DNA of 64,000 nt, from the NCBI RefSeq assembly GCF_050320075.1, contig NZ_CP190018.1. One strand, 5' to 3'. This DNA comes from Escherichia coli. GTDB taxonomy: Bacteria; Pseudomonadota; Gammaproteobacteria; Enterobacterales; Enterobacteriaceae. The position numbers were made by a program, and so were the translations under genes. The notes beneath the pieces were generated by a model. The model did no database searches, was not told the DNA's origin, and was given only the letters and a program-made list of their open reading frames with translations. This document shows, in pieces, positions 2,610 to 23,553 of the stretch (position 1 is its first letter; every line of letters starts with the position of its first letter).

Positions 2610-2984
2610 ATGGGGAAGCAAGGCAAAGGCAAAGGCAACAAAAATCAGGTTAAGGTTACGTGGGCTCAGGCGTGGCGGGATGTAATGATAAGAGCCATGT
2701 CTAATGGTCAGTTGATACCTATTACCATCAGTATTATTTTAATGATTGCTGCATGGAGGTTACCAAAAACAGACTTGTCCAATTTAGCCTTCTCTATTGT
2801 TGATGGCTTTAAGGAGCATTCCTTGGTTGGTTGGGCTATCTCGGTAATAGTGGGTTTGGCTTGGTCTGCACATGCGCGAATCATGAGGCGCTGTTTTAGT
2901 TCCGAGGCACAGAGAATCGGTAACGAGAAAACAAAGTATCAACAAAGACAGACCACTCAAGCCTTGGGTACAAGTGATAAATAG
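2610..2984 (+). CDS. Small membrane protein, 124 aa, two predicted TM helices, basic Lys/Gly-rich N-terminus (cargo)
   Basis: ORF track; hydrophobic stretches LIPITISIILMIAAW and LVGWAISVIVGLAWSA; AT-rich relative to phage backbone; start codon choice uncertain. Confidence 0.55.
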   Translation: MGKQGKGKGNKNQVKVTWAQAWRDVMIRAMSNGQLIPITISIILMIAAWRLPKTDLSNLAFSIVDGFKEHSLVGWAISVIVGLAWSAHARIMRRCFSSEAQRIGNEKTKYQQRQTTQALGTSDK

Positions 2985-3004
2985 TTGTTTATTTAGGAGT
3001 TATT

Positions 3005-3562
3005 ATGCTGACAGTGCTGTTTTATGTGCTGTTGGGTTTAGGCGCAGCACACTTCATTTACGAGCGAATCATTTTGCCGTCCATCCGACTTCATTATAGA
3101 AACCAATTGTTTGCGCTTCGTGATGTCGCTAGGAGGAAAATCATTGATGGAGGTTCCGATACTTCCATGCAAGCGGCAACACTTGTGCATGACTCATTGA
3201 ATAACGCTATCAATAGATTGCATTTACTCACGTTGCCAAACAAATTTCGTGCTCAAAAGCGTATGGCAGAAAACCATGCAATAAGGCAGAAAATTCGGCG
3301 TGAGATAGATGTTTTCAAACGCTGTGATGATAGAGAAGTTGTTGATGTACTGTTTAAATCCGGTCGGATACTTGAAAATGTACTGTTATTCAATAGCTTA
3401 ATGTTATTGCTTTACATGTTTCCATTTGTCCTTGCTGTATGGTTCTGTGTTAGGGTCATAAAGACAGCAAGTAGTTTAGTACAGTGGGTCAAAGGAAGAG
3501 ATTTAGAGGAAGCTATAATGCTGCTTCCTGATACTCAGGTTGAAAAGGTTGTATACGCATAA
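3005..3562 (+). CDS. Membrane protein, 185 aa, hydrophobic N-terminal and C-terminal segments (cargo)
   Basis: ORF track; AGGAG-like RBS 7 nt upstream of ATG; 20 bp after the preceding ORF, so co-operonic; hydrophobic segments MLTVLFYVLLGLGAAHFIY and LMLLLYMFPFVLAVWFCV. Confidence 0.65.
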   Translation: MLTVLFYVLLGLGAAHFIYERIILPSIRLHYRNQLFALRDVARRKIIDGGSDTSMQAATLVHDSLNNAINRLHLLTLPNKFRAQKRMAENHAIRQKIRREIDVFKRCDDREVVDVLFKSGRILENVLLFNSLMLLLYMFPFVLAVWFCVRVIKTASSLVQWVKGRDLEEAIMLLPDTQVEKVVYA

Positions 3563-3590
3563 AAATCACCCCTTAGGGGGTGATTTTTTT
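3563..3590 (+). terminator. Rho-independent terminator after the two-gene membrane operon
   Basis: aatcacccc-TTAG-ggggtgatt stem-loop followed by T7 run immediately after the stop codon. Confidence 0.6.
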
Positions 3591-3801
3591 ACATGACTTT
3601 TGATTAGCTGACATTGTAAATCCGCATGTATCAGATGCATTGTTTTGCATGTGGAAATGGGTGTTTTCACTGCCAGCTATCGCTACATGTAGCAAAAACA
3701 CGGGCTTAATAAGAAATCATTCTGCCATAAGGCATAACTTCCCCGCGTGCTCAGGTATTGACGTCATAGATATGGATCTTTTTTAATCAAGGTATGGTAT
3801 T

Positions 3802-4749
3802 ATGAAGATATTTATTAGTTGGTCAGGTCAGGACAGCCTGGAGATAGCAAAAGTATTACGGGATTGGATACCGAATGTTATTCAAGTAGCTGAGCCGTAC
3901 GTATCAGCGGAAGATATTGATAAAGGCACTCGCTGGGCGACTGATATATCAAAGGAACTTGATGACTCTTCTTATGGGATTATTTGCCTTACAAAAAATA
4001 ATATTAATGCACCGTGGATAAATTTTGAGGCGGGTGCTTTAGGTAAAAAGGTTGATAAGAGCCGGGTTAGTCCTTTCTTGTTTAAAATTAAACCATCTGA
4101 GATAACAGGCCCAATATTACAATTCCAGTATACTCGTTCGGATGATAAGAACGATATTTTGAAGTTGATGTTGTCAATAAATAATCAAGCAGGATTTTTG
4201 ACTGAAGAACGCTTAACTAAAGCTTTCGAGCAATGGTGGCCAAGTTTAGAGCGTGAGTTAGATAACATTCAAGATATTAACCCTGTAGATAAAGATTCCA
4301 CTAAAAAAACAAAAGGTGATTCGACTTCTGAGATACAAAATCTTTCCAAAATTGTTGAAAGTTTGCTGGATATTAGCCGAACAAATCACCAATTATTGCG
4401 TGATCCAGCATCATTATTGCCAGAAGAATATGTTAGCAAAATAATAAACAGGGAAGGGCGTAAAGAAACTGTTTTAAAAATTGTAGCTTCTGATTTATTA
4501 TCCATGCATCATTCACTAATTCGTGTAAAAAGAAGATTTATTCGCCGTGGTATTGATGAAACATCTAGGAGCGAGTTAATTGAATCATTAAATAAAATGA
4601 TAATGGATTGTTCTAGAGTAATCGCTCACTTAGATAATTATTGTGGGGCTTCATCAAACAATATGTTCAATAGTGCGCTTAGATTGCGGACCAGAAATTT
4701 AATTGACATGATGGATGAGGAGGATGCAGAACGGGATGAAATGGAATAA
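3802..4749 (+). CDS. TIR-like domain protein, 315 aa: N-terminal TIR-like fold (~130 aa) plus helical C-terminal domain of unknown function (cargo, candidate defence protein)
   Basis: N-terminus MKIFISWSGQDS...GIICLT...APWINFEAGAL matches the bacterial TIR/TIR-like signature (FISYS-type strand 1, conserved W..E.G motif) by eye; no HMM search run. Confidence 0.65.
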   Translation: MKIFISWSGQDSLEIAKVLRDWIPNVIQVAEPYVSAEDIDKGTRWATDISKELDDSSYGIICLTKNNINAPWINFEAGALGKKVDKSRVSPFLFKIKPSEITGPILQFQYTRSDDKNDILKLMLSINNQAGFLTEERLTKAFEQWWPSLERELDNIQDINPVDKDSTKKTKGDSTSEIQNLSKIVESLLDISRTNHQLLRDPASLLPEEYVSKIINREGRKETVLKIVASDLLSMHHSLIRVKRRFIRRGIDETSRSELIESLNKMIMDCSRVIAHLDNYCGASSNNMFNSALRLRTRNLIDMMDEEDAERDEME

Positions 4750-4797
4750 TCAATTTTGACTAATCATAAATAATTTTGCATATATAAACTTATAATG

Positions 4798-4830
4798 CCG
4801 CAGCCGCTATTTTTCAGCGGCTGTATATCG
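4798..4830 (+). terminator. Putative terminator downstream of the TIR-like gene
   Basis: cagccgct-atttttc-agcggctg stem-loop followed by a short T-containing tract; weaker than the other terminators. Confidence 0.35.
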
Positions 4831-5293
4831 CTTATAATGGGTATGTTATTTTTATTTTGATAAAATCATTAAAATTGTCGATGTTATATGAATGCACATG
4901 TATTATTAATGTTAGAAGATTATGCCTGCTTACGGCTATTGTGCTGAATTCAACTATGAACGCATCAGTATTAAAATCGTTCCATGAAATGTTCTTCGTC
5001 TACAGCAGATGATGGGCAACGAAAAAATGACGCTGAGTGAGTTGGTCGGGGAGAATTGTTAGAGGTATTTATGGAGTGGTTTAATAATATCGGTCAATCC
5101 TGAGTTGCAGCATCACATAGACGATAGGGAATCTCTCCAGTCGTTCTGGAATGGCAGCGTTGAACAACAAGCACAGCGAGGCGTTAGATGCCCATCAGAT
5201 TGACACAGAGGGTTTATGAATCGCTGGGATTTACTTAGTTTGAAAAATAATATATTTATATGTTTTTGTATTGTGTTTGTTAAGGAGTTTGGA

Positions 5294-5500
5294 TTGAAAA
5301 GAAAACTGATTTGTGTTATGGCTTTTTGGGGGGCGTTGCTGGCTGGTTGTAATGAGAGTAATAAAAAAGAAGTTGAGGGTTGTATTGAAAGAGGTGTCCA
5401 ATATTTTATAGAGATTGGTTCTTACCCTAAATTAAGTGATGGGCGTGATGCTGTGAAAGTTGCTACTGAACGTTGTAATAGAACAATAACGGCTTTCTGA
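5294..5500 (+). CDS. Small putative lipoprotein (about 68 aa precursor), signal peptide with lipobox LAGC (cargo)
   Basis: In-frame TTG at 5294 with TAAGGAG RBS 7 nt upstream gives MKRKLICVMAFWGALLAGC; the track starts at 5216 and an ATG lies at 5318; stop overlaps next start (TGATAATG). Confidence 0.45.
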   Translation: MKRKLICVMAFWGALLAGCNESNKKEVEGCIERGVQYFIEIGSYPKLSDGRDAVKVATERCNRTITAF

Positions 5501-5502
5501 TA

Positions 5503-6420
5503 ATGGATTATACGAGCTATATAATAGGACAGCTTCAGGTTGAGGATATTATTGATGCAATTAAAGGCGTTAATAATACTAATGTCATAAAAGATTATGT
5601 GCTGCCTGTAGTATTACCAATTATATCTTCTGTGCTGAGTTACTTTATTGCAACTAGGTTGTTTTATCGGCAGGAGTACCTTAAAGCACAAAGAAGAAAG
5701 GTAAGCGTTGTAAATAAATGTATTTATGACTACTTTTCTGCAATGACAACGTTGTTGCAAATTAAAGGGAATTATTATGGTGGGGTAAGTATAAGTGAAA
5801 ATCCTATCGAGAGGGCTTTAGCTTTTCCTGTTGTGGTTTTTTCTGGTGCTCCTCTATCATCAGATTTAAGTGAGTTGGCCTGTATATTGAGTCAAAAGGG
5901 AGTAGGGAATAATAGAGAGCCAGCAAAGACTACTAACTGGGGGGATGCTTTTGCTGTTAGTGATATAGCAAGAAGGTTTAACAGCCTATTGGCTGCATTA
6001 AATGTTAGGAATGATTTTGATGACACCTATAGAGGAATGATTATTGAATCAACAGGTTCACCTTTGCCTACGATGCGTTTTAAAAATGATGATATTGTTA
6101 ATGCTATAGGTAGTAATAAGGCAGCTTATTACATTGATATTACTGAGCAAATAATGATTATGATAGATGTTTTGTTGCTTGATATTAATCTGTTGCTCAA
6201 AGAGTTGCCATTGTATGCTGAATCGCTGTTTGACAAAAGAGTAATGCAAGAAGATTCAGGGATTCTTAAATTCAATGATTTGCACGAACGTTTTCCTCTA
6301 CTTATGAAACCTGTAACGCCACCTTCGATTAAACTCATGTCTGATTATTTGGGGTACAGTGAAGATGAGATCTTACGACGCTATCCATACCCGTTCTTTA
6401 ATATGCATGATTGTGAATGA
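5503..6420 (+). CDS. Hypothetical protein, 305 aa, single N-proximal TM helix, no domain recognised (cargo)
   Basis: ORF track; translationally coupled to the upstream lipoprotein ORF; hydrophobic segment VLPVVLPIISSVLSYFIATRLFY; strongly AT-rich. Confidence 0.65.
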   Translation: MDYTSYIIGQLQVEDIIDAIKGVNNTNVIKDYVLPVVLPIISSVLSYFIATRLFYRQEYLKAQRRKVSVVNKCIYDYFSAMTTLLQIKGNYYGGVSISENPIERALAFPVVVFSGAPLSSDLSELACILSQKGVGNNREPAKTTNWGDAFAVSDIARRFNSLLAALNVRNDFDDTYRGMIIESTGSPLPTMRFKNDDIVNAIGSNKAAYYIDITEQIMIMIDVLLLDINLLLKELPLYAESLFDKRVMQEDSGILKFNDLHERFPLLMKPVTPPSIKLMSDYLGYSEDEILRRYPYPFFNMHDCE

Positions 6421-6524
6421 ATGTGCATATGTCAGAAGCCGTTTTTATTGTCAGTTATCGTCAGTGCTGGCGCGCTCTTGGAGTGTTCATGCAACTGCAT
6501 TAAAACCGCCCCACGAAGCGGGCG

Positions 6525-6543
6525 GGCGAGGCGGGGAAAGCAC
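6525..6543. other. cos: Phage cos site (19-nt P2-type cohesive end GGCGAGGCGGGGAAAGCAC)
   Basis: Exact 19-mer read in sequence, preceded by a GC hairpin, located between the cargo island and portal gene as in P2. Confidence 0.7.
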
Positions 6544-6713
6544 TGCGCGCTGGCGGTGGTGATGATTTTATTTTTTCAGCGTCTGAGCGCGTCGTGATGG
6601 CGTTTAGATTGTGCGCCGGGGCGTTGGTGTGTCTGCGGGGTGTTTTGTACAGTGGCGAGCGTGTGAGGGCGTGATGACGGGGGTGTAAAAAAGCCGCCCG
6701 CAGGCGGCGATGT

Positions 6714-7748: not shown

Positions 7749-9520
7749 CAGTAAAACTCCAGAATGGTGGATGTCAGCGGGGTGCTGATACCGGCGGTGA
7801 GTGGCTCATTTAACAGGGCGTGCATGGTTGCCCAGGCGAGGTCGGCGTGGCTGGCTTCCTCGCTGCGGCTGGCCTCATAGGTGGCGCTGCGTCCGCTGCT
7901 GGTTATGGTCTTGCGGATAGCCATAAACGAGCTGGTGATGTCGGTGGCGCTGACGTCATATTCCAGACAGCCACGGCGGATGACGTCTTTTGCCTTGAGC
8001 ACCATTGCGGTTTTCATTTCCGGCGTGTAGCGGATGTCGCGCGCGGCGGGATAGAACGAGCGCACGAGCTGGAACACGCCGACACCGAGGCCGGTGGCAT
8101 CAATACCGATGTATTCGACGTTGTATTTTTCGGTGAGTTTGCGGATGGATTCCGCCTGAGTGGCAAAGTCCATGCCTTTCCACTGGTGACGCTCAAGTAT
8201 TCTGAATTTGCCACCGGCCACCACCGGCGGTGCCAGTACCACGCATCCGGCGCTGTCGCCACGGTGTGACGGGTCGTAACCAATCCATACCGGACGTGAG
8301 CCGAACGGATTGGCGGCAAACGGCGCATAGTCTTCCCATTCTTCCAGCGTGTCGACCATGCAGCGTTGCAGCTCCTCAAACGGGAACACCGATGCCTTGT
8401 CGTCAACAAATTCACACATGAACAGGTTTTTAAAATCGTCGGCGCTGTTTTCGCGTTTGAGCTGCTCAATGTCGAACAATGTGCAGCCGCCTTTCAGGGC
8501 GTCCTCAATGGTGACAATCTGCCGCCACTGGCCGTCCGCACAGAGAAGACCACCGGCAAGGGCGTTATGACTGACGTCGATTTCCACACGTTCGGCGGCG
8601 CTGGCGCGTCCCCGGTTGAACAGTTCACCCGACCAGAACGGGTAGGCGTCGTGCGCCAGCGTGGACGGGGTGGAGAAATAGGTCGAGCGCAGGTGACTCT
8701 GTGAGGCCATACCTGATGCCACCTTACGCAGTACCTGAAAATTCGGGATCCAGAAAATCTCGTCGACGTACAGGTCGCCGTTATGGCTCTGTGCGGTGTT
8801 GGAGTTGGTGCCGAGAAAAATCAGTTTTGCGCCGTTATTGCCCAGGACAATCGGGTCACCGGTCAGGTCAACGTCAACCAGCCGGGCAAAGGCGATGATG
8901 TATTCGCGGAACACATACGCCTGCGTTTTACTGGCCGACAGAAAAATCTGGTTATGACCGGTTTTCAGGGCGCGCAGCAGCGCCTCGCGGGAAAAATAAA
9001 ACGTCGCGCCAATCTGGCGGGATTTCAGGATATCGCGGATGCGGTGCTCAAGCCCGGCGCGATACCAGTGCAACTGATAGTCGAAAGACTGCTCAAAGAA
9101 AATCTGCTCCAGCTTTTCGATGGCCTCGTCACTGAAAAAATTCTTTTTCGGTTTGCGACGCCCGCCTTTGTTGCGGTTAGCAACGTTCGGATTAAGGTCT
9201 GCCTCGTTGCCGGTCTGACTGTAGCGGTTGACCCGCGCCAGTCGTTCAATCTGGCGTCCGAGCAGGTCAATTTCCTTGAAGTCACCGCCGGTTTTCTGCG
9301 GTTTTATGATGAGCTGGGTCAGCCGCGCTTCCAGACTCATTTCGACACGGCTGATGGGGGCAACGCTGTCCCAGCCGTCGCGCTGTTTCCAGCTCTGCAC
9401 CGTCGGGCGTTTCATCTGCAACATGGCGGCAATCTGCGGCACGGAAAACCCCTGCCAGTACAGCTGCGCCGCCTGACGACGCGGGTCGTGTAAAAGAGTG
9501 GTGTCTGTGGTGATGGTCAT
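7748..9520 (-). CDS. P: Terminase large subunit (P2 gpP-like)
   Basis: 590 aa from ATG at 9520 with GAGGT RBS (track ORF starts 30 nt further upstream); divergent from the O-N-M operon as in P2. Confidence 0.9.
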   Translation of the reverse strand: MTITTDTTLLHDPRRQAAQLYWQGFSVPQIAAMLQMKRPTVQSWKQRDGWDSVAPISRVEMSLEARLTQLIIKPQKTGGDFKEIDLLGRQIERLARVNRYSQTGNEADLNPNVANRNKGGRRKPKKNFFSDEAIEKLEQIFFEQSFDYQLHWYRAGLEHRIRDILKSRQIGATFYFSREALLRALKTGHNQIFLSASKTQAYVFREYIIAFARLVDVDLTGDPIVLGNNGAKLIFLGTNSNTAQSHNGDLYVDEIFWIPNFQVLRKVASGMASQSHLRSTYFSTPSTLAHDAYPFWSGELFNRGRASAAERVEIDVSHNALAGGLLCADGQWRQIVTIEDALKGGCTLFDIEQLKRENSADDFKNLFMCEFVDDKASVFPFEELQRCMVDTLEEWEDYAPFAANPFGSRPVWIGYDPSHRGDSAGCVVLAPPVVAGGKFRILERHQWKGMDFATQAESIRKLTEKYNVEYIGIDATGLGVGVFQLVRSFYPAARDIRYTPEMKTAMVLKAKDVIRRGCLEYDVSATDITSSFMAIRKTITSSGRSATYEASRSEEASHADLAWATMHALLNEPLTAGISTPLTSTILEFY

Positions 9521-9693
9521 GAATACCTCGCCGTGATGAATACACGGCAAGGCTACTGAGTCGCGCCCCGCGATTCGCTAAGGTGCTGTTGTGTCAGTGA
9601 TAAGCCATCCGGGACTGATGGCGGAGGATGCGCATCGTCGGGAAACTGATGCCGACATGTGACTCCTCTAATCACTATTCAGGACTCCTGACA

Positions 9694-10548
9694 ATGGCAA
9701 AAAAAGTCTCAAAATTCTTTCGTATCGGCGTTGAGGGTGACACCTGTGACGGGCGTGTCATCAGTGCGCAGGATATTCAGGAAATGGCCGAAACCTTTGA
9801 CCCGCGTGTCTATGGTTGCCGCATTAACCTGGAACATCTGCGCGGCATCCTGCCTGACGGTATTTTTAAGCGTTATGGCGATGTGGCCGAACTGAAGGCC
9901 GAAAAGATTGACGATGATTCGGCGCTGAAAGGCAAATGGGCGCTGTTTGCGAAAATCACCCCGACCGATGACCTTATCGCGATGAACAAGGCCGCGCAGA
10001 AGGTCTATACCTCAATGGAAATTCAGCCGAACTTTGCCAATACAGGCAAATGTTATCTGGTGGGGCTGGCCGTCACCGATGACCCGGCAAGCCTCGGCAC
10101 GGAATACCTGGAATTCTGCCGCACGGCAAAACACAACCCCCTGAACCGCTTCAAATTAAGCCCTGAAAACCTGATTTCAGTGGCAACGCCTGTTGAGCTG
10201 GAATTTGAAGACCTGCCTGAAACCGTGTTCACCGCCCTGACCGAAAAGGTGAAATCCATTTTTGGCCGCAAACAGGCCAGCGATGACGCCCGTCTGAATG
10301 ACGTGCATGAAGCGGTGACCGCTGTTGCTGAACATGTGCAGGAAAAACTGAGCGCCACTGAGCAGCGCCTCGCTGAGATGGAAACCGCCTTTTCTGCACT
10401 TAAGCAGGAGGTGACTGACAGGGCGGATGAAACCAGCCAGGCATTCACCCGCCTGAAAAACAGTCTCGACCACACCGAAAGTCTGACCCAGCAGCGCCGC
10501 AGCAAGGCCACCGGCGGTGGCGGTGACGCACTGATGACGAACTGCTGA
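9694..10548 (+). CDS. O: Capsid scaffolding protein (P2 gpO-like)
   Basis: About 284 aa from internal ATG (MAKKVSKFFRIGVEG...); position between P and N. Confidence 0.85.
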   Translation: MAKKVSKFFRIGVEGDTCDGRVISAQDIQEMAETFDPRVYGCRINLEHLRGILPDGIFKRYGDVAELKAEKIDDDSALKGKWALFAKITPTDDLIAMNKAAQKVYTSMEIQPNFANTGKCYLVGLAVTDDPASLGTEYLEFCRTAKHNPLNRFKLSPENLISVATPVELEFEDLPETVFTALTEKVKSIFGRKQASDDARLNDVHEAVTAVAEHVQEKLSATEQRLAEMETAFSALKQEVTDRADETSQAFTRLKNSLDHTESLTQQRRSKATGGGGDALMTNC

Positions 10549-15022: not shown

Positions 15023-15452
15023 TGCCGTCACGGTGCTGAAAACCAGTCCCGATATGCTGCGGATATTCGTGGATAACGGGAGTATTGCCTCCACGCTGGC
15101 GGCGTCGTTGTCATTCGAAAAGCGTTACACGCTCAATGTGATTGTGACCGACTTTACCGGTGATTTTGACCTGCTCATCGTGCCGGTGCTGGCGTGGCTG
15201 CGGGAAAATCAGCCCGACATCATGACCACCGACGCAGGCCAGAAAAAGGGCTTCACGTTTTATGCAGACATCAACAATGACAGCAGCTTTGATATCAGCA
15301 TCAGCCTGATGCTGACCGAGCGCACGCTGGTCAGTGAGGTTGACGGCGCACTGCATGTGAAGAATATCCCGGAACCCCCGCCGCCGGAGCCGGTCAACCG
15401 CCCGATGGAGCTTTATATCAATGGCGAACTGGTGAGCAAGTGGGATGAATGA
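14985..15452 (+). CDS. R: Tail completion protein (P2 gpR-like)
   Basis: 155 aa, size and position. Confidence 0.85.
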   Translation: MLKPDSLRRALTDAVTVLKTSPDMLRIFVDNGSIASTLAASLSFEKRYTLNVIVTDFTGDFDLLIVPVLAWLRENQPDIMTTDAGQKKGFTFYADINNDSSFDISISLMLTERTLVSEVDGALHVKNIPEPPPPEPVNRPMELYINGELVSKWDE

Positions 15453-15897
15453 GTTTAAGCGTTTTGAAGACCGGCTGACCGGACTGATTGAGTCGCTGTC
15501 ACCGTCAGGGCGTCGGCGACTGAGTGCCGAACTGGCGAAGCGCCTGCGGCAGAGTCAGCAGCGTCGGGTGATGGCACAGAAAGCCCCGGACGGCACACCC
15601 TACGCGCCACGCCAGCAGCAGAGCGCCAGAAAAAAGACTGGTCGTGTTAAGCGAAAAATGTTTGCGAAACTTATCACCAGTCGTTTTTTGCATATCCGCG
15701 CCAGCCCGGAGCAGGCATCAATGGAATTTTACGGCGGAAAGTCGCCGAAAATCGCCAGTGTGCATCAGTTTGGTCTGTCGGAAGAAAACCGGAAAGACGG
15801 TAAGAAAATTGATTATCCGGCGCGTCCTCTGCTCGGCTTTACCGGTGAGGATGTGCAGATGATTGAAGAGATTATCCTGGCTCACCTTGAGCGTTAG
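15445..15897 (+). CDS. S: Tail completion protein (P2 gpS-like)
   Basis: 150 aa, size and position. Confidence 0.85.
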   Translation: MNEFKRFEDRLTGLIESLSPSGRRRLSAELAKRLRQSQQRRVMAQKAPDGTPYAPRQQQSARKKTGRVKRKMFAKLITSRFLHIRASPEQASMEFYGGKSPKIASVHQFGLSEENRKDGKKIDYPARPLLGFTGEDVQMIEEIILAHLER

Positions 15898-15930
15898 TTT
15901 TATCCAGGCAGAGGCTGATGCGCAATTAAG

Positions 15931-15962
15931 CATTGAGCGGCCGTGCTGGTCGCTCAATATTT
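15931..15962. terminator. Bidirectional stem-loop between convergent S and the reverse-oriented cargo gene
   Basis: Perfect 8-bp inverted repeat attgagcg...cgctcaat with 10-nt loop. Confidence 0.45.
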
Positions 15963-15968
15963 AGAGGT

Positions 15969-16754
15969 TTATGAGTGGTTTTTATTTGATGCTTTGTATT
16001 CTAAAACCTTCTTATTGGCGTAAAGGAATTTTGTATATGACAGGAATATAAGCAGACCTGAAATGAAATAGGTTAGGGATATTATTAATAATGTTTTTTT
16101 GTAGCTGTTATTATCTTTAATCTCCTGACTTAACCATTCGGAGTCCTCCTTGTTTAGCTGTAAGAGCTTATTGCAGGCGATCTCGGGAAGTGTGTCTTTT
16201 ATAAATACGTTTTGCAGACTCTTGCAATCGGCAAGGCTATAAGTTTTATTAAATTCAACCGTTTTATTTTTGAAGGATAAAAGAACTTTGTCACTATAAA
16301 CATAGTACATCATATTTTTATATGGTATACCTATGGCATCCCTTACTATAGCGGATTGTTCATTGTGTATATAACATGCGAAGAGAATATAAATAATACT
16401 GGCCAGAATTACAATTGTTGTTTTAATTATGTGTGGTGGTTTTGTTATGTCACCCCAGAAGCGAGTAAGGAAAAAATACGATGTTTTTAGTTTTCCATCA
16501 ATCAGCCCCTGCTGTATCATTCTCACATCTTCGATGCCTGATACATTGATTCCGTTAATTATTTTAAATAGTTGAATGTCGCGCCATTTTTTGTCGAGCA
16601 TTTTTAACTTTCTGTCTGAATACTCAAGATTGAAATGATGTGCAATAAACCTCATAAGATTACTTTTACCAAAGGTAACAAATGTTAATGCTATTAATAA
16701 AAATAGATACAAAGAGATAAACCACCACGCATTAGTCACATTATCACTGAACAT
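15969..16754 (-). CDS. Integral membrane protein, 261 aa, three predicted TM helices, reverse-oriented moron between S and V (cargo)
   Basis: ORF track; GAGGAG RBS 6 nt upstream of ATG; very AT-rich; opposite strand to the flanking late operon. Confidence 0.7.
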   Translation of the reverse strand: MFSDNVTNAWWFISLYLFLLIALTFVTFGKSNLMRFIAHHFNLEYSDRKLKMLDKKWRDIQLFKIINGINVSGIEDVRMIQQGLIDGKLKTSYFFLTRFWGDITKPPHIIKTTIVILASIIYILFACYIHNEQSAIVRDAIGIPYKNMMYYVYSDKVLLSFKNKTVEFNKTYSLADCKSLQNVFIKDTLPEIACNKLLQLNKEDSEWLSQEIKDNNSYKKTLLIISLTYFISGLLIFLSYTKFLYANKKVLEYKASNKNHS

Positions 16755-16837
16755 TACGCTCTCCTCGAATGTTGTATGGTCGTTCTACAAATGAATCCAG
16801 ATAGCATAACTTTTATATATTGTGCAATCTCACACGC

Positions 16838-17473
16838 ATGAACACTCTCGCAAATATTCAGGAACTCGCGCGCGCACTGCGCAACATGATCCGCACCGGC
16901 ATTATCGTCGAAACCGACCTTAATGCCGGTCGCTGCCGTGTGCAGACCGGCGGCATGTGCACCGACTGGCTTCAGTGGCTGACCCATCGCGCCGGGCGTT
17001 CGCGCACATGGTGGGCACCTTCCGTGGGGGAACAGGTGCTGATTCTGGCCGTGGGTGGTGAACTCGACACGGCGTTCGTTCTGCCGGGGATTTATTCCGG
17101 CGATAACCCCGCGCCGTCTGCGTCGGCGGATGCCCTGCATATCCGTTTCCCTGACGGGGCGGTGATTGAGTATGAACCTGAAACCAGCGCGCTCACGGTA
17201 AGCGGAGTTAAAACGGCCAGCGTGACGGCTTCTGATTCTGTTACTGCCACGGTGCCGGTGGTCATGGTGAAAGCATCAACCCGCATCACCCTGGACACAC
17301 CGGAGGTGGTCTGCACCAACAGGCTGATTACCGGCACGCTGGAAGTGCAGAAGGGCGGGACGATGCGCGGCAACATTGAACACACCGGCGGTGAGCTCTC
17401 ATCAAACGGTAAGGTACTGCATACCCATAAACACCCCGGCGACAGCGGCGGCACAACCGGGGGACCTCTATGA
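16838..17473 (+). CDS. V: Baseplate spike protein (P2 gpV-like)
   Basis: 211 aa from ATG at 16838 (MNTLANIQELARAL...); track ORF begins at an upstream TTG. Confidence 0.85.
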   Translation: MNTLANIQELARALRNMIRTGIIVETDLNAGRCRVQTGGMCTDWLQWLTHRAGRSRTWWAPSVGEQVLILAVGGELDTAFVLPGIYSGDNPAPSASADALHIRFPDGAVIEYEPETSALTVSGVKTASVTASDSVTATVPVVMVKASTRITLDTPEVVCTNRLITGTLEVQKGGTMRGNIEHTGGELSSNGKVLHTHKHPGDSGGTTGGPL

Positions 17474-17817
17474 CTGCGCGTTATCTCGGAATGAATCGCA
17501 GTGATGGCCTGACTGTCACTGACCTTGAGCATATCAGCCAGAGTATCGGCGATATCCTGCGTACCCCCGTCGGCTCACGGGTGATGCGTCGTGATTACGG
17601 CTCGTTGCTGGCGTCAATGATTGACCAGCCGCAGACCCCGGCGCTTGAGTTGCAGATTAAGGTCGCCTGTTACATGGCAGTGCTGAAATGGGAACCCCGC
17701 GTCACCCTGTCATCCGTCACCACGGCGCGCAGTTTTGACGGGCGAATGACGGTCACGTTAACCGGTCAGCACAACGACACCGGCCAGCCACTTTCGTTAA
17801 CCATCCCTGTGAGTTGA
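17470..17817 (+). CDS. W: Baseplate protein (P2 gpW-like)
   Basis: 115 aa, size and position. Confidence 0.85.
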   Translation: MTARYLGMNRSDGLTVTDLEHISQSIGDILRTPVGSRVMRRDYGSLLASMIDQPQTPALELQIKVACYMAVLKWEPRVTLSSVTTARSFDGRMTVTLTGQHNDTGQPLSLTIPVS

Positions 17818-19263: not shown

Positions 19264-21417
19264 ATGAGCACAAAATTCAAAACCGTTATCACCACTGCCG
19301 GTGCAGCAAAGCTGGCAGCGGCAACCGCACCGGGAGGGCGGAAGGTCAATATTACCACGATGGCCGTCGGGGATGGCGGTGGTAAATTGCCTGTCCCGGA
19401 TGCCGGACAGACCGGGCTTATCCACGAAGTCTGGCGACATGCGCTGAACAAAATCAGCCAGGACAAACGAAACAGTAATTATATTATCGCAGAGCTGGTT
19501 ATTCCGCCGGAGGTGGGCGGCTTCTGGATGCGTGAGCTTGGCCTGTACGATGATGCGGGAACGTTAATTGCCGTGGCGAACATGGCCGAAAGTTATAAAC
19601 CTGCCCTTGCCGAAGGCTCAGGGCGTTCGCAGACCTGCCGCATGGTCATCATCGTCAGCAGTGTGGCCTCAGTGGAGCTGACCATTGACACCACAACGGT
19701 GATGGCGACGCAGGATTACGTTGATGACAAAATTGCAGAGCATGAACAGTCACGACGTCACCCGGACGCCTCGCTGACCGCAAAAGGTTTTACTCAGTTA
19801 AGCAATGCGACCAACAGCACGTCTGAAACACTGGCCGCAACGCCGAAAGCGGTTAAGGCCGCATATGACCTTGCTAACGGGAAATATACCGCACAGGACG
19901 CTACCACAGCGCGAAAAGGTCTTGTCCAGCTAAGTAGTGCGACCAACAGCATGTCTGAAACGCTCGCCGCAACACCAAAAGCCGTTAAGACGGTAATGGA
20001 TGAAACGAACAAGAAAGCGCCATTAAACAGCCCTGCACTGACCGGAACGCCAACGACGCCAACTGCGCGACAGGGAACGAATAATACTCAGATCGCAAAC
20101 ACGGCTTTCGTTATGGCCGCGATTGCCGCCCTTGTAGACTCGTCGCCTGACGCACTGAATACGCTGAACGAGCTGGCGGCGGCGCTGGGCAATGACCCGA
20201 ATTTTGCTACCACCATGACTAATGCGCTTGCGGGTAAGCAACCGAAAGATGCCACTTTGACGGCGCTGGCGGGGCTTGCTACTGCGGCAGACAGGTTTCC
20301 GTATTTTACGGGGAATGATGTTGCCAGCCTGGCGACCCTGACAAAAGTCGGGCGGGATATTCTGGCTAAATCGACCGTTGCCGCCGTTATCGAATATCTC
20401 GGTTTACAGGAAACGGTAAACCGAGCCGGGAACGCCGTGCAAAAAAATGGCGATACCTTGTCCGGTGGACTTACTTTTGAAAACGACTCAATCCTTGCCT
20501 GGATTCGAAATACTGACTGGGCGAAGATTGGATTTAAAAATGATGCCGATGGTGACACTGATTCATACATGTGGTTTGAAACAGGCGACAACGGCAATGA
20601 ATATTTCAAATGGAGAAGCAAACAAGGCACCACAACAAAAGACCTGATGAATCTTAAATGGGATGCTTTGTATGTTCTTGTCAATGCCATTGTAAATGGC
20701 GAAGTCATATCAAAATCAGCAAACGGCCTACGTATTGCTTATGGTAATTACGGATTCTTTATTCGTAATGATGGTTCAAATACATACTTCATGTTGACAA
20801 ACTCCGGTGACAACATGGGGACTTATAACGGATTAAGGCCATTATGGATTAATAACGCTACTGGCGCTGTTTCGATGGGGCGTGGCCTTAATGTTTCAGG
20901 AGAAACACTTTCAGACCGTTTTGCTATTAACAGCGGTAATGGTATGTGGATTCAGATGCGCGATAACAACGCTATCTTTGGGAAAAATATAGTTAACACT
21001 GATAGCGCCCAGGCCTTGCTCCGTCAGGACCATGCCGACCGCAAATTTATGATTGGCGGTCTGGGAAATAAGCAATTTGGCATCTACATGATTAATAACT
21101 CAAGGACAGCCAATGGCACCGATGGTCAGGCGTACATGGACAATAACGGTAACTGGCTTTGTGGTTCGCAAGTTATTCCCGGCAACTATGGCAATTTTGA
21201 TTCCAGATATGTGAAAGATGTTCGACTTGGTTCACAGCAATATTATGGAGTGAACAACTGGCAAACATGGAATTTCCAGTGCCCGTCAGGTCATGTATTG
21301 TCTGGTATTAATGTTCAGGATACAGGGTCCAACTCTGCCGATAATATAGCGGGCGTTTATTACAGACCCGTTCAAAAGTATATAAATGGCACCTGGTATA
21401 ATGTAGCGAGCGTTTAA
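19264..21417 (+). CDS. H: Tail fibre protein (P2 gpH-like), 717 aa with AT-rich C-terminal receptor-binding region
   Basis: Position after I; N-terminus conserved phage-fibre type; composition shifts in the distal half. Confidence 0.85.
19786..20001 (+). repeat. Two imperfect ~84-bp direct repeats inside gene H, encoding a duplicated G(F/L)(T/V)[19 protein letters not shown] motif
   Basis: Repeat copies at about 19786-19869 and 19918-20001 read directly in DNA and protein. Confidence 0.6.
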
Positions 21418-22240: not shown

Positions 22241-22891
22241 ATGCATACTGGCTTTAAGGGAACTTATGACGCACTTTTGAGGCTTGAGAAGGCTATAGAA
22301 GGTCTGACCATCCAAGATGGGTTGATGACGAATACTCTTGGAGTTGGTGTTCCGGCAATAACATCAGATGACCTAATTGACCAAATAATTTGCATTATTA
22401 ACAAGCTGAAAGCATATGGTGATATTGAACTAACTGAAAAAGAAATTGCCGCTTATTCATCTCTCCCTGAAAAAATTGACACACTCATTAGAGTTCACGT
22501 CCCAGAGTTCTCAGGCGTTAACTCCGCACGAGCTATATCTTCATATATGCTAACACTGGCATATGTTGACCATTTCTTGGATGAATCGTTTACATGGAAG
22601 CGGTTGGATAATGCTAATTTACTTCCTAGAAATTTAAGCAGAAAAATTAAAAGCATGGAGGCGAGAATTAACAAGATTGATCCTGAGATGGATGCTCTTG
22701 AGAGTAAAGTTAAAACGATTAATGATGCTCATGTAGCTGCAGAAAATATACCTATAGACTTAAATGAATTAAAGGAATACAACAAAGAAGCATCTGATTT
22801 AAAGGAGAAGATATCTAAAACTCATTTCAGTTTAGAGTCCCAAGAAGAAGCCGCAAAAAAAATTATTGATGAGTTGCAAGAAAAAATATAG
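22241..22891 (+). CDS. Cargo protein at the Z/fun position, N-terminal part: 216 aa, soluble, coiled-coil-rich C-terminal half; probably the 5' portion of a longer frameshifted gene
   Basis: ORF track; TATAAT-like -10 element about 27 nt upstream; ends in TAG at 22889-22891 directly after an A6 tract. Confidence 0.6.
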   Translation: MHTGFKGTYDALLRLEKAIEGLTIQDGLMTNTLGVGVPAITSDDLIDQIICIINKLKAYGDIELTEKEIAAYSSLPEKIDTLIRVHVPEFSGVNSARAISSYMLTLAYVDHFLDESFTWKRLDNANLLPRNLSRKIKSMEARINKIDPEMDALESKVKTINDAHVAAENIPIDLNELKEYNKEASDLKEKISKTHFSLESQEEAAKKIIDELQEKI

Positions 22892-23016
22892 AGGCTGCCC
22901 GGTATCTGGCTCTTTGCGAAGAGGCTATTAGGGCTTCAACATCGAAAGGCTTAGCAGGAGCATTTGAAATAAAAGCAGATAAGCTTAACCGAAGTATCCA
23001 ACTATGGGTTGCCGGT

Positions 23017-23541
23017 TTGGCAGTTGCTTTGGGGCTTGGTGGTTTAGTCGGATATGAAAGATTGAAAGTTCTTTCTGGGGTTTTGAATAACCCAAATCCC
23101 AGTGCGGTAGTAATACTCACTCAATTACTATTATCTGTTTTTAGCATAGGCGCCCCTCTTTGGTTTGCTTGGATGTCTACAAAACAAATTAATCAACGTT
23201 TCAAACTCGCAGAGGATTATGCTTATAAAGCTTCTGTGGCTAAAGCGTATGAGGGATACAAAAATGAGGCATGCAAGGTATCAGATGGAGAGTTCGAAAA
23301 ACGCTTATTTGATTCTGCGCTAAGTCGACTTGAAGAGGCTCCATTGCGTTTTGTGAAAGATGAAGATCATACTACTCCTTGGACAGAAATGCTTAATTCT
23401 AAGTCGTTTCAAAAATTCTTAGATGCCTCCATTGATAATGTAAATTATGTTAAAGGGATTATAAGTAAGAAAGGCCAATCAGCAGCTAAAGCAAGCAATG
23501 ATGAGGTTAATCACATTGAAAAACTAAAGAATGAAGCTTGA
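23017..23541 (+). CDS. Cargo protein, C-terminal part: two TM helices plus about 130-aa C-terminal domain; reading frame is open back to 22873 with no in-frame ATG or RBS, consistent with fusion to the upstream ORF through a -1 shift
   Basis: Track start is a TTG; hand translation of 22873-23016 is stop-free and continues the coiled-coil (EAARYLALCEEAIRASTSKG...). Confidence 0.5.
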   Translation: MAVALGLGGLVGYERLKVLSGVLNNPNPSAVVILTQLLLSVFSIGAPLWFAWMSTKQINQRFKLAEDYAYKASVAKAYEGYKNEACKVSDGEFEKRLFDSALSRLEEAPLRFVKDEDHTTPWTEMLNSKSFQKFLDASIDNVNYVKGIISKKGQSAAKASNDEVNHIEKLKNEA

Positions 23542-23553
23542 ATTATAATACTG

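Follow-up and report, generated by a model that had tools for sequence, protein, structure and literature searches.

Why should a prophage keep an AT-rich gene for a membrane protein among its tail genes, on the strand opposite to every late operon? This question is raised by positions 15969 to 16754 of a 64,000-nucleotide stretch of Escherichia coli DNA (contig NZ_CP190018.1 of assembly GCF_050320075.1; the whole stretch is called the window here), where an open reading frame (ORF) lies in reverse orientation between the tail genes S and V of a P2-type prophage. Our analyses indicate that this ORF is almost certainly an allele of orf30 of bacteriophage P2. As to its role, we favour, at a probability of roughly 0.4, a prophage-expressed inner-membrane protein that would guard the lysogen against incoming phages by exclusion or defence. 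We lean towards this reading because the gene is insulated from the late operons by its antisense orientation, is present only optionally and deviates in base composition; because it evolves fast under constraint, has been duplicated in tandem and is restricted to the P2 lineage beside the spike gene; because it stays intact in decayed prophages (REL606 and copies hit by insertion sequences); and because recognised defence systems occupy the same S-V slot in other phages. The gene in question is:

15969..16754, minus strand: allele of orf30 (PHROG 2407); 261 amino acids, ATG start, three predicted transmembrane (TM) segments, predicted inner-membrane protein

A megablast search of positions 15400-17500 against phage records covered the full 2.1 kb in 20 of the 92 matching records, among them bacteriophage P2 itself (AF063097; 94.6% identity over 100% of the 2.1 kb). 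On the complement of positions 9439-10224, the P2 record carries a 786-nt coding sequence between S and V (AAD03281.1) that is annotated 'orf30, Orf30, nonessential'. BLASTP aligned the window protein with P2 Orf30 over 261 of 261 residues at 84% amino acid identity with zero gaps, and the phrog_2407 profile matched it from end to end (residues 1-261 against profile positions 1-261, E=3.4e-141). The two genes have the same slot, strand and 786-bp length, and the flanking terminator and V promoter elements are shared as well. They differ in that the window gene is an allelic variant, with 41 amino acid differences concentrated in the first TM helix (TM1) and the other TM helices. At the DNA level, orf30 is more diverged from P2 (synonymous divergence, dS, of 0.17) than are its flanks (~0.09-0.10). 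The window gene is 100% identical to that of E. coli Ec-U3 (WP_097314524.1), which resides in a P2-type prophage with an integration site adjoining trhP/yegP. An earlier note on this DNA had credited P2 with only a small orf30 near this position and had taken the present gene to be additional. It is orf30 itself and not a new insertion, gene and slot having long been present in the P2 record and in the comparative literature. The length of orf30 is given correctly as 786 bp in one paper (PMC2771037), and the '261-bp-long' 'ORF30' printed in another (PMC6823313) is a slip for 261 amino acids.

No competing ORF of more than 48 amino acids appears over 15969-16754 in the ORF list of the window. 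The GC content of orf30 is 32.4%, compared with 52% for the window and 54-62% for the flanking 300-bp windows. At this composition stop codons would make up about 7.6% of random codons and, by simple arithmetic, 261 open codons would arise by chance with a probability of ~1e-9. Kyte-Doolittle analysis places three hydrophobic segments in the protein, at amino acids 9-28, 111-129 and 221-241. ORF, base composition, hydropathy and a GAGGAG Shine-Dalgarno sequence all agree with the earlier description of a reverse-strand, AT-rich, 261-amino-acid ORF with three hydrophobic helices and a good ribosome-binding site between S and V.

How could such a gene be expressed between two late operons? The features that border and control it are as follows:

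15445..15897, plus strand: tail completion gene S, final gene of the O late operon; borders the slot on the left; 99.3% amino acid identity to P2 gpS
15900..16837, no strand assigned: whole orf30 module (terminator, orf30 and a V promoter region of its own), an insertion/deletion polymorphism with respect to P2-like phages whose slot is empty; delimited by BLAST against phage fiAA91-ss
15927..15963, no strand assigned: hairpin common to the convergent S and orf30 transcripts; 11-bp stem, between the S stop (15897) and the orf30 stop
16761..16766, minus strand: GAGGAG, the Shine-Dalgarno sequence of orf30 (spacing of 6 nt to its ATG), read from the sequence
16769..16796 (approximate), no strand assigned: activator (Ogr/Delta) binding site of the V late promoter, from the P2 annotation mapped onto the window
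16838..17473, plus strand: baseplate spike gene V, first gene of the V late operon; borders the slot on the right; 97% amino acid identity to P2 gpV

The extent of the module was read from a comparison with phage fiAA91-ss, whose S-V slot is empty and measures 66 bp. Sequence identity with this phage ends at the S stop codon, homology to empty-slot phages reaching position 15899, and returns precisely at the V ATG, so the module comes with a terminator and a V promoter region of its own. The module, consisting of the O-operon terminator, the antisense gene and the V late promoter, is an optional accessory. In RefSeq, the product of S is named 'phage virion morphogenesis protein'. For V, the simple ORF list begins at a TTG (16820) and the annotated start, as in P2, is the ATG at 16838.

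Within this module, orf30 is insulated from late transcription by its antisense orientation, by a terminator on one side and by the Ogr-dependent V promoter on the other. The hairpin at 15927-15963 folds on both strands (-22.7 and -16.9 kcal/mol, the latter on the minus strand), in keeping with the bidirectional hairpin that had been proposed to close orf30 off from S, and its z-scores against shuffled sequences are only -1.4 and -1.7. In AF063097 it is annotated 'putative rho-independent terminator for O operon', that is, for the strand opposite to orf30. On the minus strand it directly follows the orf30 stop and is itself followed by only a weak T tract. On the other side of the gene, the divergent region common to orf30 and V does exist and does hold the activator site of the V promoter, and its length from the orf30 ATG (16754) to the V ATG (16838) is 83 bp rather than the 84 bp given previously. 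The P2 annotation describes the site as 'activator binding site; activation of pV promoter', and the ACACAACA half-site is kept in the divergent region of all eight loci compared (8/8). In both the window and P2, the activator site lies ~15-42 bp upstream of the orf30 ATG, inside the 5′ leader region of orf30. Transcription of orf30 must therefore start no closer to the gene than the V core promoter and cross the activator site. From this arrangement we infer that the orf30 and V promoters are probably mutually exclusive, and that any expression of orf30 would fall in times when the late promoters are off.

The S-V region of an empty slot looks quite different. At locus L002 (positions 1997-2062, compared with window positions 15898-16837), it consists of an unrelated 66 bp that contain a GC-rich hairpin and, ~56 nt ahead of the V ATG, a TGT-N12-ACC element. 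Since the two intergenic regions are unrelated, there are two unrelated versions of the V promoter, and one of them moves together with orf30. In neither version is the V ATG preceded by a Shine-Dalgarno sequence, and in the P2 record V transcription is shown as starting with the first base of the V coding sequence.

The location of orf30 also invites a rather different explanation, namely that the protein is a non-essential membrane factor of the phage's own cycle. It could tune the time of lysis, the ejection or entry of DNA, the assembly of the tail or baseplate at the membrane, or the interplay with the satellite P4, and the gene would be kept in the S-V slot because it cooperates with neighbouring late functions. 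The gene lies just downstream of the lysis cassette (K, lysA, lysB, lysC), outside Y-K-lysABC, and has a control region in common with the spike gene V, both of which would suit such a role. This is hard to reconcile with a gene that runs antisense to every late operon between a terminator and a late promoter, and an Ogr site 15-42 bp upstream of its ATG leaves no room for a normal upstream activator role at orf30. We return to this explanation below, where the distribution of the family bears on it.

With the gene identified, the next question is how widely it is carried and whether it is maintained. Among 5426 complete E. coli genomes, 463 (~8.5%) carry orf30. The S-V junction is present in 1584 of these genomes; it is filled in 459 of the 1584 (~29%), and most of the others have the 66-bp gap. 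The gene is absent from ~70% of very close relatives, including phages isolated as viable particles, and it is not conserved in all P2-like phages, the slot being empty at most E. coli junctions. Presence or absence between near-identical phages, a deviant GC content and a terminator of its own (the hairpin at 15927-15963) are properties of a moron in the sense of a Hendrix-type accessory transcription unit, and the earlier view of the gene as a moron-like optional module is borne out by these counts. For the own-cycle explanation, absence from so many close relatives and viable isolates, together with the 'nonessential' annotation in P2, is an obvious difficulty.

Where present, the gene is well preserved. 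At least 80% of orf30 is covered in 460 of the 463 copies, and 6 of 6 translated alleles are intact. Between diverged E. coli alleles (dS 0.07-0.29), the ratio of nonsynonymous to synonymous divergence (dN/dS) is 0.41-0.51 (~0.45), a value that rests on 17-73 nonsynonymous changes per allele pair. In the same E. coli comparisons, S, V and W give ratios of 0-0.3 at a dS of ~0.1. These values indicate that orf30 is under purifying selection and is less constrained than the structural genes; its alleles are probably older, or have been exchanged. Such figures bear directly on another explanation, that orf30 is a hitch-hiking remnant of horizontally acquired DNA with no current function, persisting since the module supplies a terminator and a V promoter. 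In its favour, no function has been found since the P2 genome was annotated, the gene is nonessential, its dN/dS lies above that of neighbouring genes and it has no convincing promoter. We nevertheless regard this explanation as very unlikely. The dN/dS is well below 1 over the 17-73 changes per pair, almost all copies are full length, and, as described below, architecture, motif and cysteine pair are kept down to 17% identity within a confidently predicted common fold. Moreover, V can be expressed without the module, since 66 bp of intergenic DNA suffice in phages with an empty slot.

Some of the intact copies stand in decayed or disrupted surroundings. In E. coli B REL606 (locus L109, NC_012967 2110619-2111404), orf30 is intact in a P2 remnant from which the head and lysis genes are gone: the portal gene and S are both truncated, and nothing is left of the DNA between them. 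There, orf30 adjoins genes annotated as an ABC-three-component system. At loci L018 and L021 (E. coli APEC E14033, STO_Bone2), the IS21-family element ISEc12 stands directly beside the module and orf30 is intact in both; one insertion adjoins a truncated S, and the other is found immediately downstream of W, at the J position. Persistence in remnants without head and lysis genes does not sit well with a role in the phage's own cycle.

If orf30 is an accessory gene, what else does its slot carry? The comparative literature already treats the region as variable. Lynch et al. describe the right end (TO), the Z region and orf30 as three P2 regions with differing horizontally acquired genes (PMC3091744), for which they cite Nilsson and Haggard-Ljungquist. 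Lavigne et al. report orf30 between S and V in P2, its absence from WPhi and L-413C, and another ORF in PhiCTX (PMC2771037). The Burkholderia phages KS5 and KL3 each have a gene (gp28 in both) between their homologues of V and S; it codes for an Old-like protein in the former and for a DNA methylase in the latter, placements that are taken from the gene numbering in a table (PMC3091744). More recent hotspot papers centre on the gpA-portal and Z/fun sites (PMC9122126; PMC9519451; 10.1101/2024.10.15.618418), and a 2026 preprint mentions minor defence hotspots within the P2 late genes (10.64898/2026.02.27.708500). Thus the S-V interval is indeed, as suggested earlier, a real cargo site in addition to the two usually named hotspots, with defence systems among its cargo, but the site had already been described (PMC3091744, PMC2771037).

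A scan of viral contigs anchored on gpV extended this picture. Eighty contigs were fetched, 75 of which contained both S and V. The comparison of S-V intervals, which the earlier note had proposed, revealed a variable slot: 40 contigs had an empty slot (66-71 bp), 11 had an Orf30-family gene there, in every case antisense, and the remaining 24 had other cargo. This other cargo comprises at least nine unrelated types, all with a GC content of 33-43%. At locus L070 (IMG/VR UViG_2534681782_000022), an S-V interval of ~2.0 kb contains a complete Pycsar system with the cyclase PycC (E=1.3e-128) and the three-TM effector PycTM (E=7.6e-29). Among loci L071, L092, L103 and L039, the cargo includes a RelA/SpoT-like protein of 357-366 amino acids that matches the PADLOC model PDC-S33 (2e-16) and a 508-amino-acid ATPase that matches PDC-S59 (1.5e-19). 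No PADLOC match was obtained for a 389-amino-acid two-TM protein, a 280-amino-acid protein, a 221-amino-acid four-TM protein or a pair of HExxH-like and lipoprotein-like proteins. Two slot genes were considered as possible relatives of Orf30 and rejected as unrelated on comparison: orf15 of PhiCTX and a 741-bp forward ORF of some E. coli prophages (R18C-type, phrog_10503). They are also unrelated to each other.

In several respects, orf30 resembles the classical P2 hotspot cargo (old, tin and the Z/fun genes) and the other S-V cargo. All are AT-rich, optional and swapped between near-identical phages, and all sit at fixed sites between conserved genes (PMC3091744; PMC9519451; PMC9122126). They differ in that old, tin, Z/fun and the S-V cargo with a link to defence (Pycsar, the PDC-S33 and PDC-S59 candidates, Old-like gp28 of KS5) have demonstrated or HMM-recognised defence functions (HMM, hidden Markov model) and are present in other mobile elements, whereas Orf30 matches no defence model and its family resides almost wholly within one slot.

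The two established hotspots of the window prophage are filled as well, according to the RefSeq annotation of an identical genome. The gpA-portal hotspot (~2610-6420) contains a gene for a TIR-domain protein (~3802-4749) and four for hypothetical proteins, not old/tin. The Z/fun slot (~22241-23542), which runs from the tail fibre assembly gene to the sheath gene, encodes a 433-amino-acid hypothetical protein. In the 3′ part of the tail fibre gene H (window positions 20400-21000), the GC content falls to ~39-43%.

What kind of protein does orf30 encode? Its predicted parts, in order from the N-terminus, are:

16671..16730, minus strand: TM1 (amino acids 9-28), from hydropathy; the most variable segment between close alleles
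16425..16670, minus strand: loop 1 (amino acids 29-110), predicted cytoplasmic, helical and net basic; the most conserved part of the family
16368..16424, minus strand: TM2 (amino acids 111-129), from hydropathy; AlphaFold2 helix 109-134
16095..16367, minus strand: loop 2 (amino acids 130-220), predicted periplasmic; four-strand beta sheet and helices
16224-16226, minus strand: Cys177, conserved, in loop 2
16173-16175, minus strand: Cys194, invariant, in loop 2
16032..16094, minus strand: TM3 (amino acids 221-241), from hydropathy
15972-16031, minus strand: basic C-terminal tail (amino acids 242-261), with a family net charge of +2.1

AlphaFold2, run with a 28-sequence alignment of the family, returned a model with a predicted local distance difference test score (pLDDT) of 83.8 and a predicted template modelling score (pTM) of 0.73. 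The model begins with a long helix that includes TM1, followed by loop 1 with helices at 48-67, 74-85 and 91-94, the helix at 109-134, a sheet at 141-173 with two helices, and a helix at 202-260 that includes TM3. The mean net charges across the family are -0.8 for the N-terminus, +5.6 for loop 1, -0.1 for loop 2 and +2.1 for the C-terminal tail. The cysteine pair of loop 2 is kept in 28 of 28 family members, and conserved cysteine pairs usually mark oxidising compartments. Based upon the positive-inside rule and this cysteine pair, we infer a topology in which the N-terminus is outside and the C-terminus inside, loop 1 faces the cytoplasm and loop 2, probably disulfide-bonded, faces the periplasm. 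Location in the cytoplasmic membrane is likewise a prediction, drawn from the three hydrophobic helices, the charge bias and the cysteines. Conservation is uneven along the protein. Loop 1, with the motif DxQLF+xxNGINV...DA...GxL...FGxIG, has a mean pairwise identity of 33% in the family, compared with 14-20% in the TM helices, which are least conserved; between close alleles, TM1 is 47% identical and the loops 82-90%. Architecture, motif and cysteine pair are kept down to 17% identity.

Given three TM segments and a position near the lysis genes, we considered whether Orf30 could be a holin. Class I holins have three TM segments with the N-terminus out and the C-terminus in, measure ~70-150 amino acids, belong to the lysis cassette and are expressed late. 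This identity was rejected by size, strand and position, since Orf30 has 261 amino acids and two structured loops of 80-90 amino acids and is encoded antisense to the late operons, outside Y-K-lysABC. A CorA/ZntB-type ion channel, which is defined by a C-terminal two-TM pore, a GMN-type signature and a large N-terminal cytoplasmic alpha/beta domain, was also rejected, as Orf30 does not have this layout.

An inner-membrane protein with a predicted disulfide-bonded periplasmic domain might also act on something other than phages. Orf30 could be a lysogenic-conversion protein that provides, for example, protection against tailocins, colicins or contact-dependent toxins, tolerance of envelope stress or a host-colonisation trait. 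Like other conversion genes, orf30 is optional and AT-rich. Two members of the family lie outside a P2 tail context, one of them beside a gene of the DsbA family, and structurally similar uncharacterised membrane proteins occur in many Proteobacteria in the AlphaFold database. Nothing in the analyses pointed to any such activity, however, and there was no match to virulence or immunity families; the tight link of the family to P2-like phages favours a phage-related role. We therefore consider a conversion function quite unlikely.

The reach of the family became apparent only with sensitive searches. A word-indexed protein search with the single Orf30 sequence recovered five close clusters only, and the same type of search with a 28-sequence profile recovered close relatives only. 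An exhaustive profile search yielded 44 representatives, ~25 of them full length at 17-33% identity. PHROG 2407 ('unknown function') was matched by 10 of the 10 representatives tested. Contigs were inspected for ten representatives. Eight of these lie antisense between S and V of other P2-like prophages, and the remaining two are on short contigs without S, V, R or W nearby. Relatives are 23-33% identical to Orf30 of the window phage, compared with 62-84% for the corresponding gpV and 62-78% for gpR, and their GC content is 30-35% in surrounding phage DNA of 47-62%.

Several of the loci have features of their own. One of the members without tail genes nearby (L012, 66-752 and 991-1743 of a 1.8-kb contig) is divergent from a gene of the DsbA/thioredoxin family, a curious neighbour in view of the invariant cysteine pair of the Orf30 family. 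In a prophage remnant (L015), tandem Orf30 paralogs (P0021 and P0046, at 5001-5771 and 5900-6658) occupy the S-V slot. At two further loci (L024 4800-6440 and L027 2965-3899), the slot has become a small island with extra genes: one island holds an Orf30 relative, an ORF6N-domain gene and two small ORFs, and the other has a 180-amino-acid gene and a DUF7480 gene upstream of, and in the same orientation as, the Orf30 relative.

Near confinement to one slot over deep divergence (8 of 10 contexts), unlike typical hotspot cargo, which moves between elements, is an argument for a role in the phage's own cycle, and a most conserved region that is predicted to be cytoplasmic would fit a conserved phage or host partner. 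Weighed against antisense orientation, frequent absence, dispensability in P2 and survival in remnants, we consider this explanation unlikely.

Beyond PHROG 2407, Orf30 can be connected to the Pfam family DUF6216 (PF19723), and this link is faint. Three of 28 family members match DUF6216 at E<=1e-3 and six of 28 at E<=0.1; the window protein itself gave no match in the Pfam search. Foldseek aligned a DUF6216-labelled protein of the AlphaFold database with the Orf30 model at E=3.6e-5 and a moderate TM-score of ~0.5, and a record in a precomputed collection holds a faint DUF6216 match for one member of the Orf30 family that resides in the slot. The two groups are alike in length and multi-TM layout. 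DUF6216 is itself uncharacterised and adds no mechanism, and the structural match is only moderate.

Searches for a known function gave little else. The HMMs of PADLOC-DB 2.0 returned 0 families at E<=1 for window Orf30 and 0 at E<=0.1 for four distant relatives. Profile searches of Pfam, NCBIfam and the PDB with the window protein gave nothing usable, its family searches showed no signal of a virulence or immunity family, and a structure search of BFVD with the Orf30 model found no match. In AFDB50, only uncharacterised membrane proteins were found, with clear matches in Enterobacterales (Yersinia, Serratia, Pectobacterium, Enterobacter) and weaker ones (TM-score ~0.5) in many Proteobacteria. 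The homology and structure searches that had been proposed earlier thus lead to PHROG 2407 and uncharacterised membrane proteins, and to no defence, exclusion or lysis family. In the literature searched, no function or expression of orf30 is reported; a transcriptome paper on Salmonella BTP5 is silent on the S-V slot, and the P2 hotspot papers do not mention orf30.

These searches also bear on the idea that Orf30 is a pore-forming abortive effector with a built-in sensor, comparable to the TM effectors of CBASS and Pycsar or to RexB-like channels. Three TM segments, fast evolution and tandem paralogs are consistent with this idea, as is the Pycsar TM effector found in the same slot elsewhere. 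Yet a reading of the sequence shows neither a GMN motif nor any polar or charged residue in the TM helices that would line a pore, PADLOC effector models do not match, and no partner sensor gene is consistently adjacent in the inspected loci. We judge such an effector to be very unlikely.

A comparison may also be drawn with the exclusion proteins. SieA of P22, Imm and Sp of T4, gp15 of HK97 and Sie2009 of lactococcal phages are small, phage- or prophage-encoded exclusion proteins of the cytoplasmic membrane. They are lineage-specific, non-essential and often AT-rich morons, and some, such as HK97 gp15, are encoded among or beside tail genes. Orf30 is like them in its predicted location, optional nature and lineage restriction. 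It differs in having no detectable sequence or fold similarity to them, in its larger size and in its two structured loops.

Taking these points together, we propose that Orf30 would be made from the resident prophage while the late promoters are silent, and that its action at the cytoplasmic membrane would shield the lysogen from phages that try to infect it. The most plausible mode would be superinfection exclusion, in which Orf30 blocks the DNA entry of related contractile-tailed phages; a membrane-acting abortive effect is a less plausible mode. Several observations weigh against this proposal. The best-conserved part of the protein is the predicted cytoplasmic loop 1 and not the periplasmic loop 2, which at first sight is unexpected for a protein that meets phage parts in the periplasm. 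A gene so strictly bound to one slot of a single phage lineage could just as well serve the phage's own cycle. Guilt by association is weak, because the S-V slot also holds many cargoes of unknown function. In neither the window nor P2 did the region ahead of the orf30 ATG show a sigma-70-like promoter at a strict (>=9/12 matches) or a lenient (>=8/12 matches) threshold, and the AT-rich gene may be silenced by H-NS. Finally, no phenotype of orf30 was found in the literature searched. At the distant loci, the orf30 leaders are longer and AT-rich and contain weak promoter candidates.

More tentatively, the proposal may be extended to the family as a whole. The Orf30 family (PHROG 2407, DUF6216-like) could be an unrecognised, lineage-locked exclusion or defence family that is expressed from prophages antisense to their tail operons, an extension that we regard as somewhat doubtful. 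In such a family, contact with the incoming injection apparatus of related contractile phages would fall to the disulfide-bonded loop in the periplasm, and a partner from host or phage would be bound by the conserved loop on the cytoplasmic side.

In conclusion, this locus is a minor discovery as such, since both gene and slot have been known for years from the P2 record and the comparative literature. Even so, orf30 is among the few P2 genes without an assigned function, and it is carried by ~8.5% of complete E. coli genomes, including that of E. coli B (REL606). Its family maintains a common fold and an invariant cysteine pair in one antisense slot beside the spike gene while diverging to ~20% identity, and the complete Pycsar system at L070 shows that this slot is able to carry bona fide defence systems. 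What the present analysis adds is this family-level picture and a sharper hypothesis, that of membrane-level exclusion by a family invisible to defence finders. If true, it would explain a long-unassigned P2 gene and would add a defence family that is missed by current defence-finding tools.

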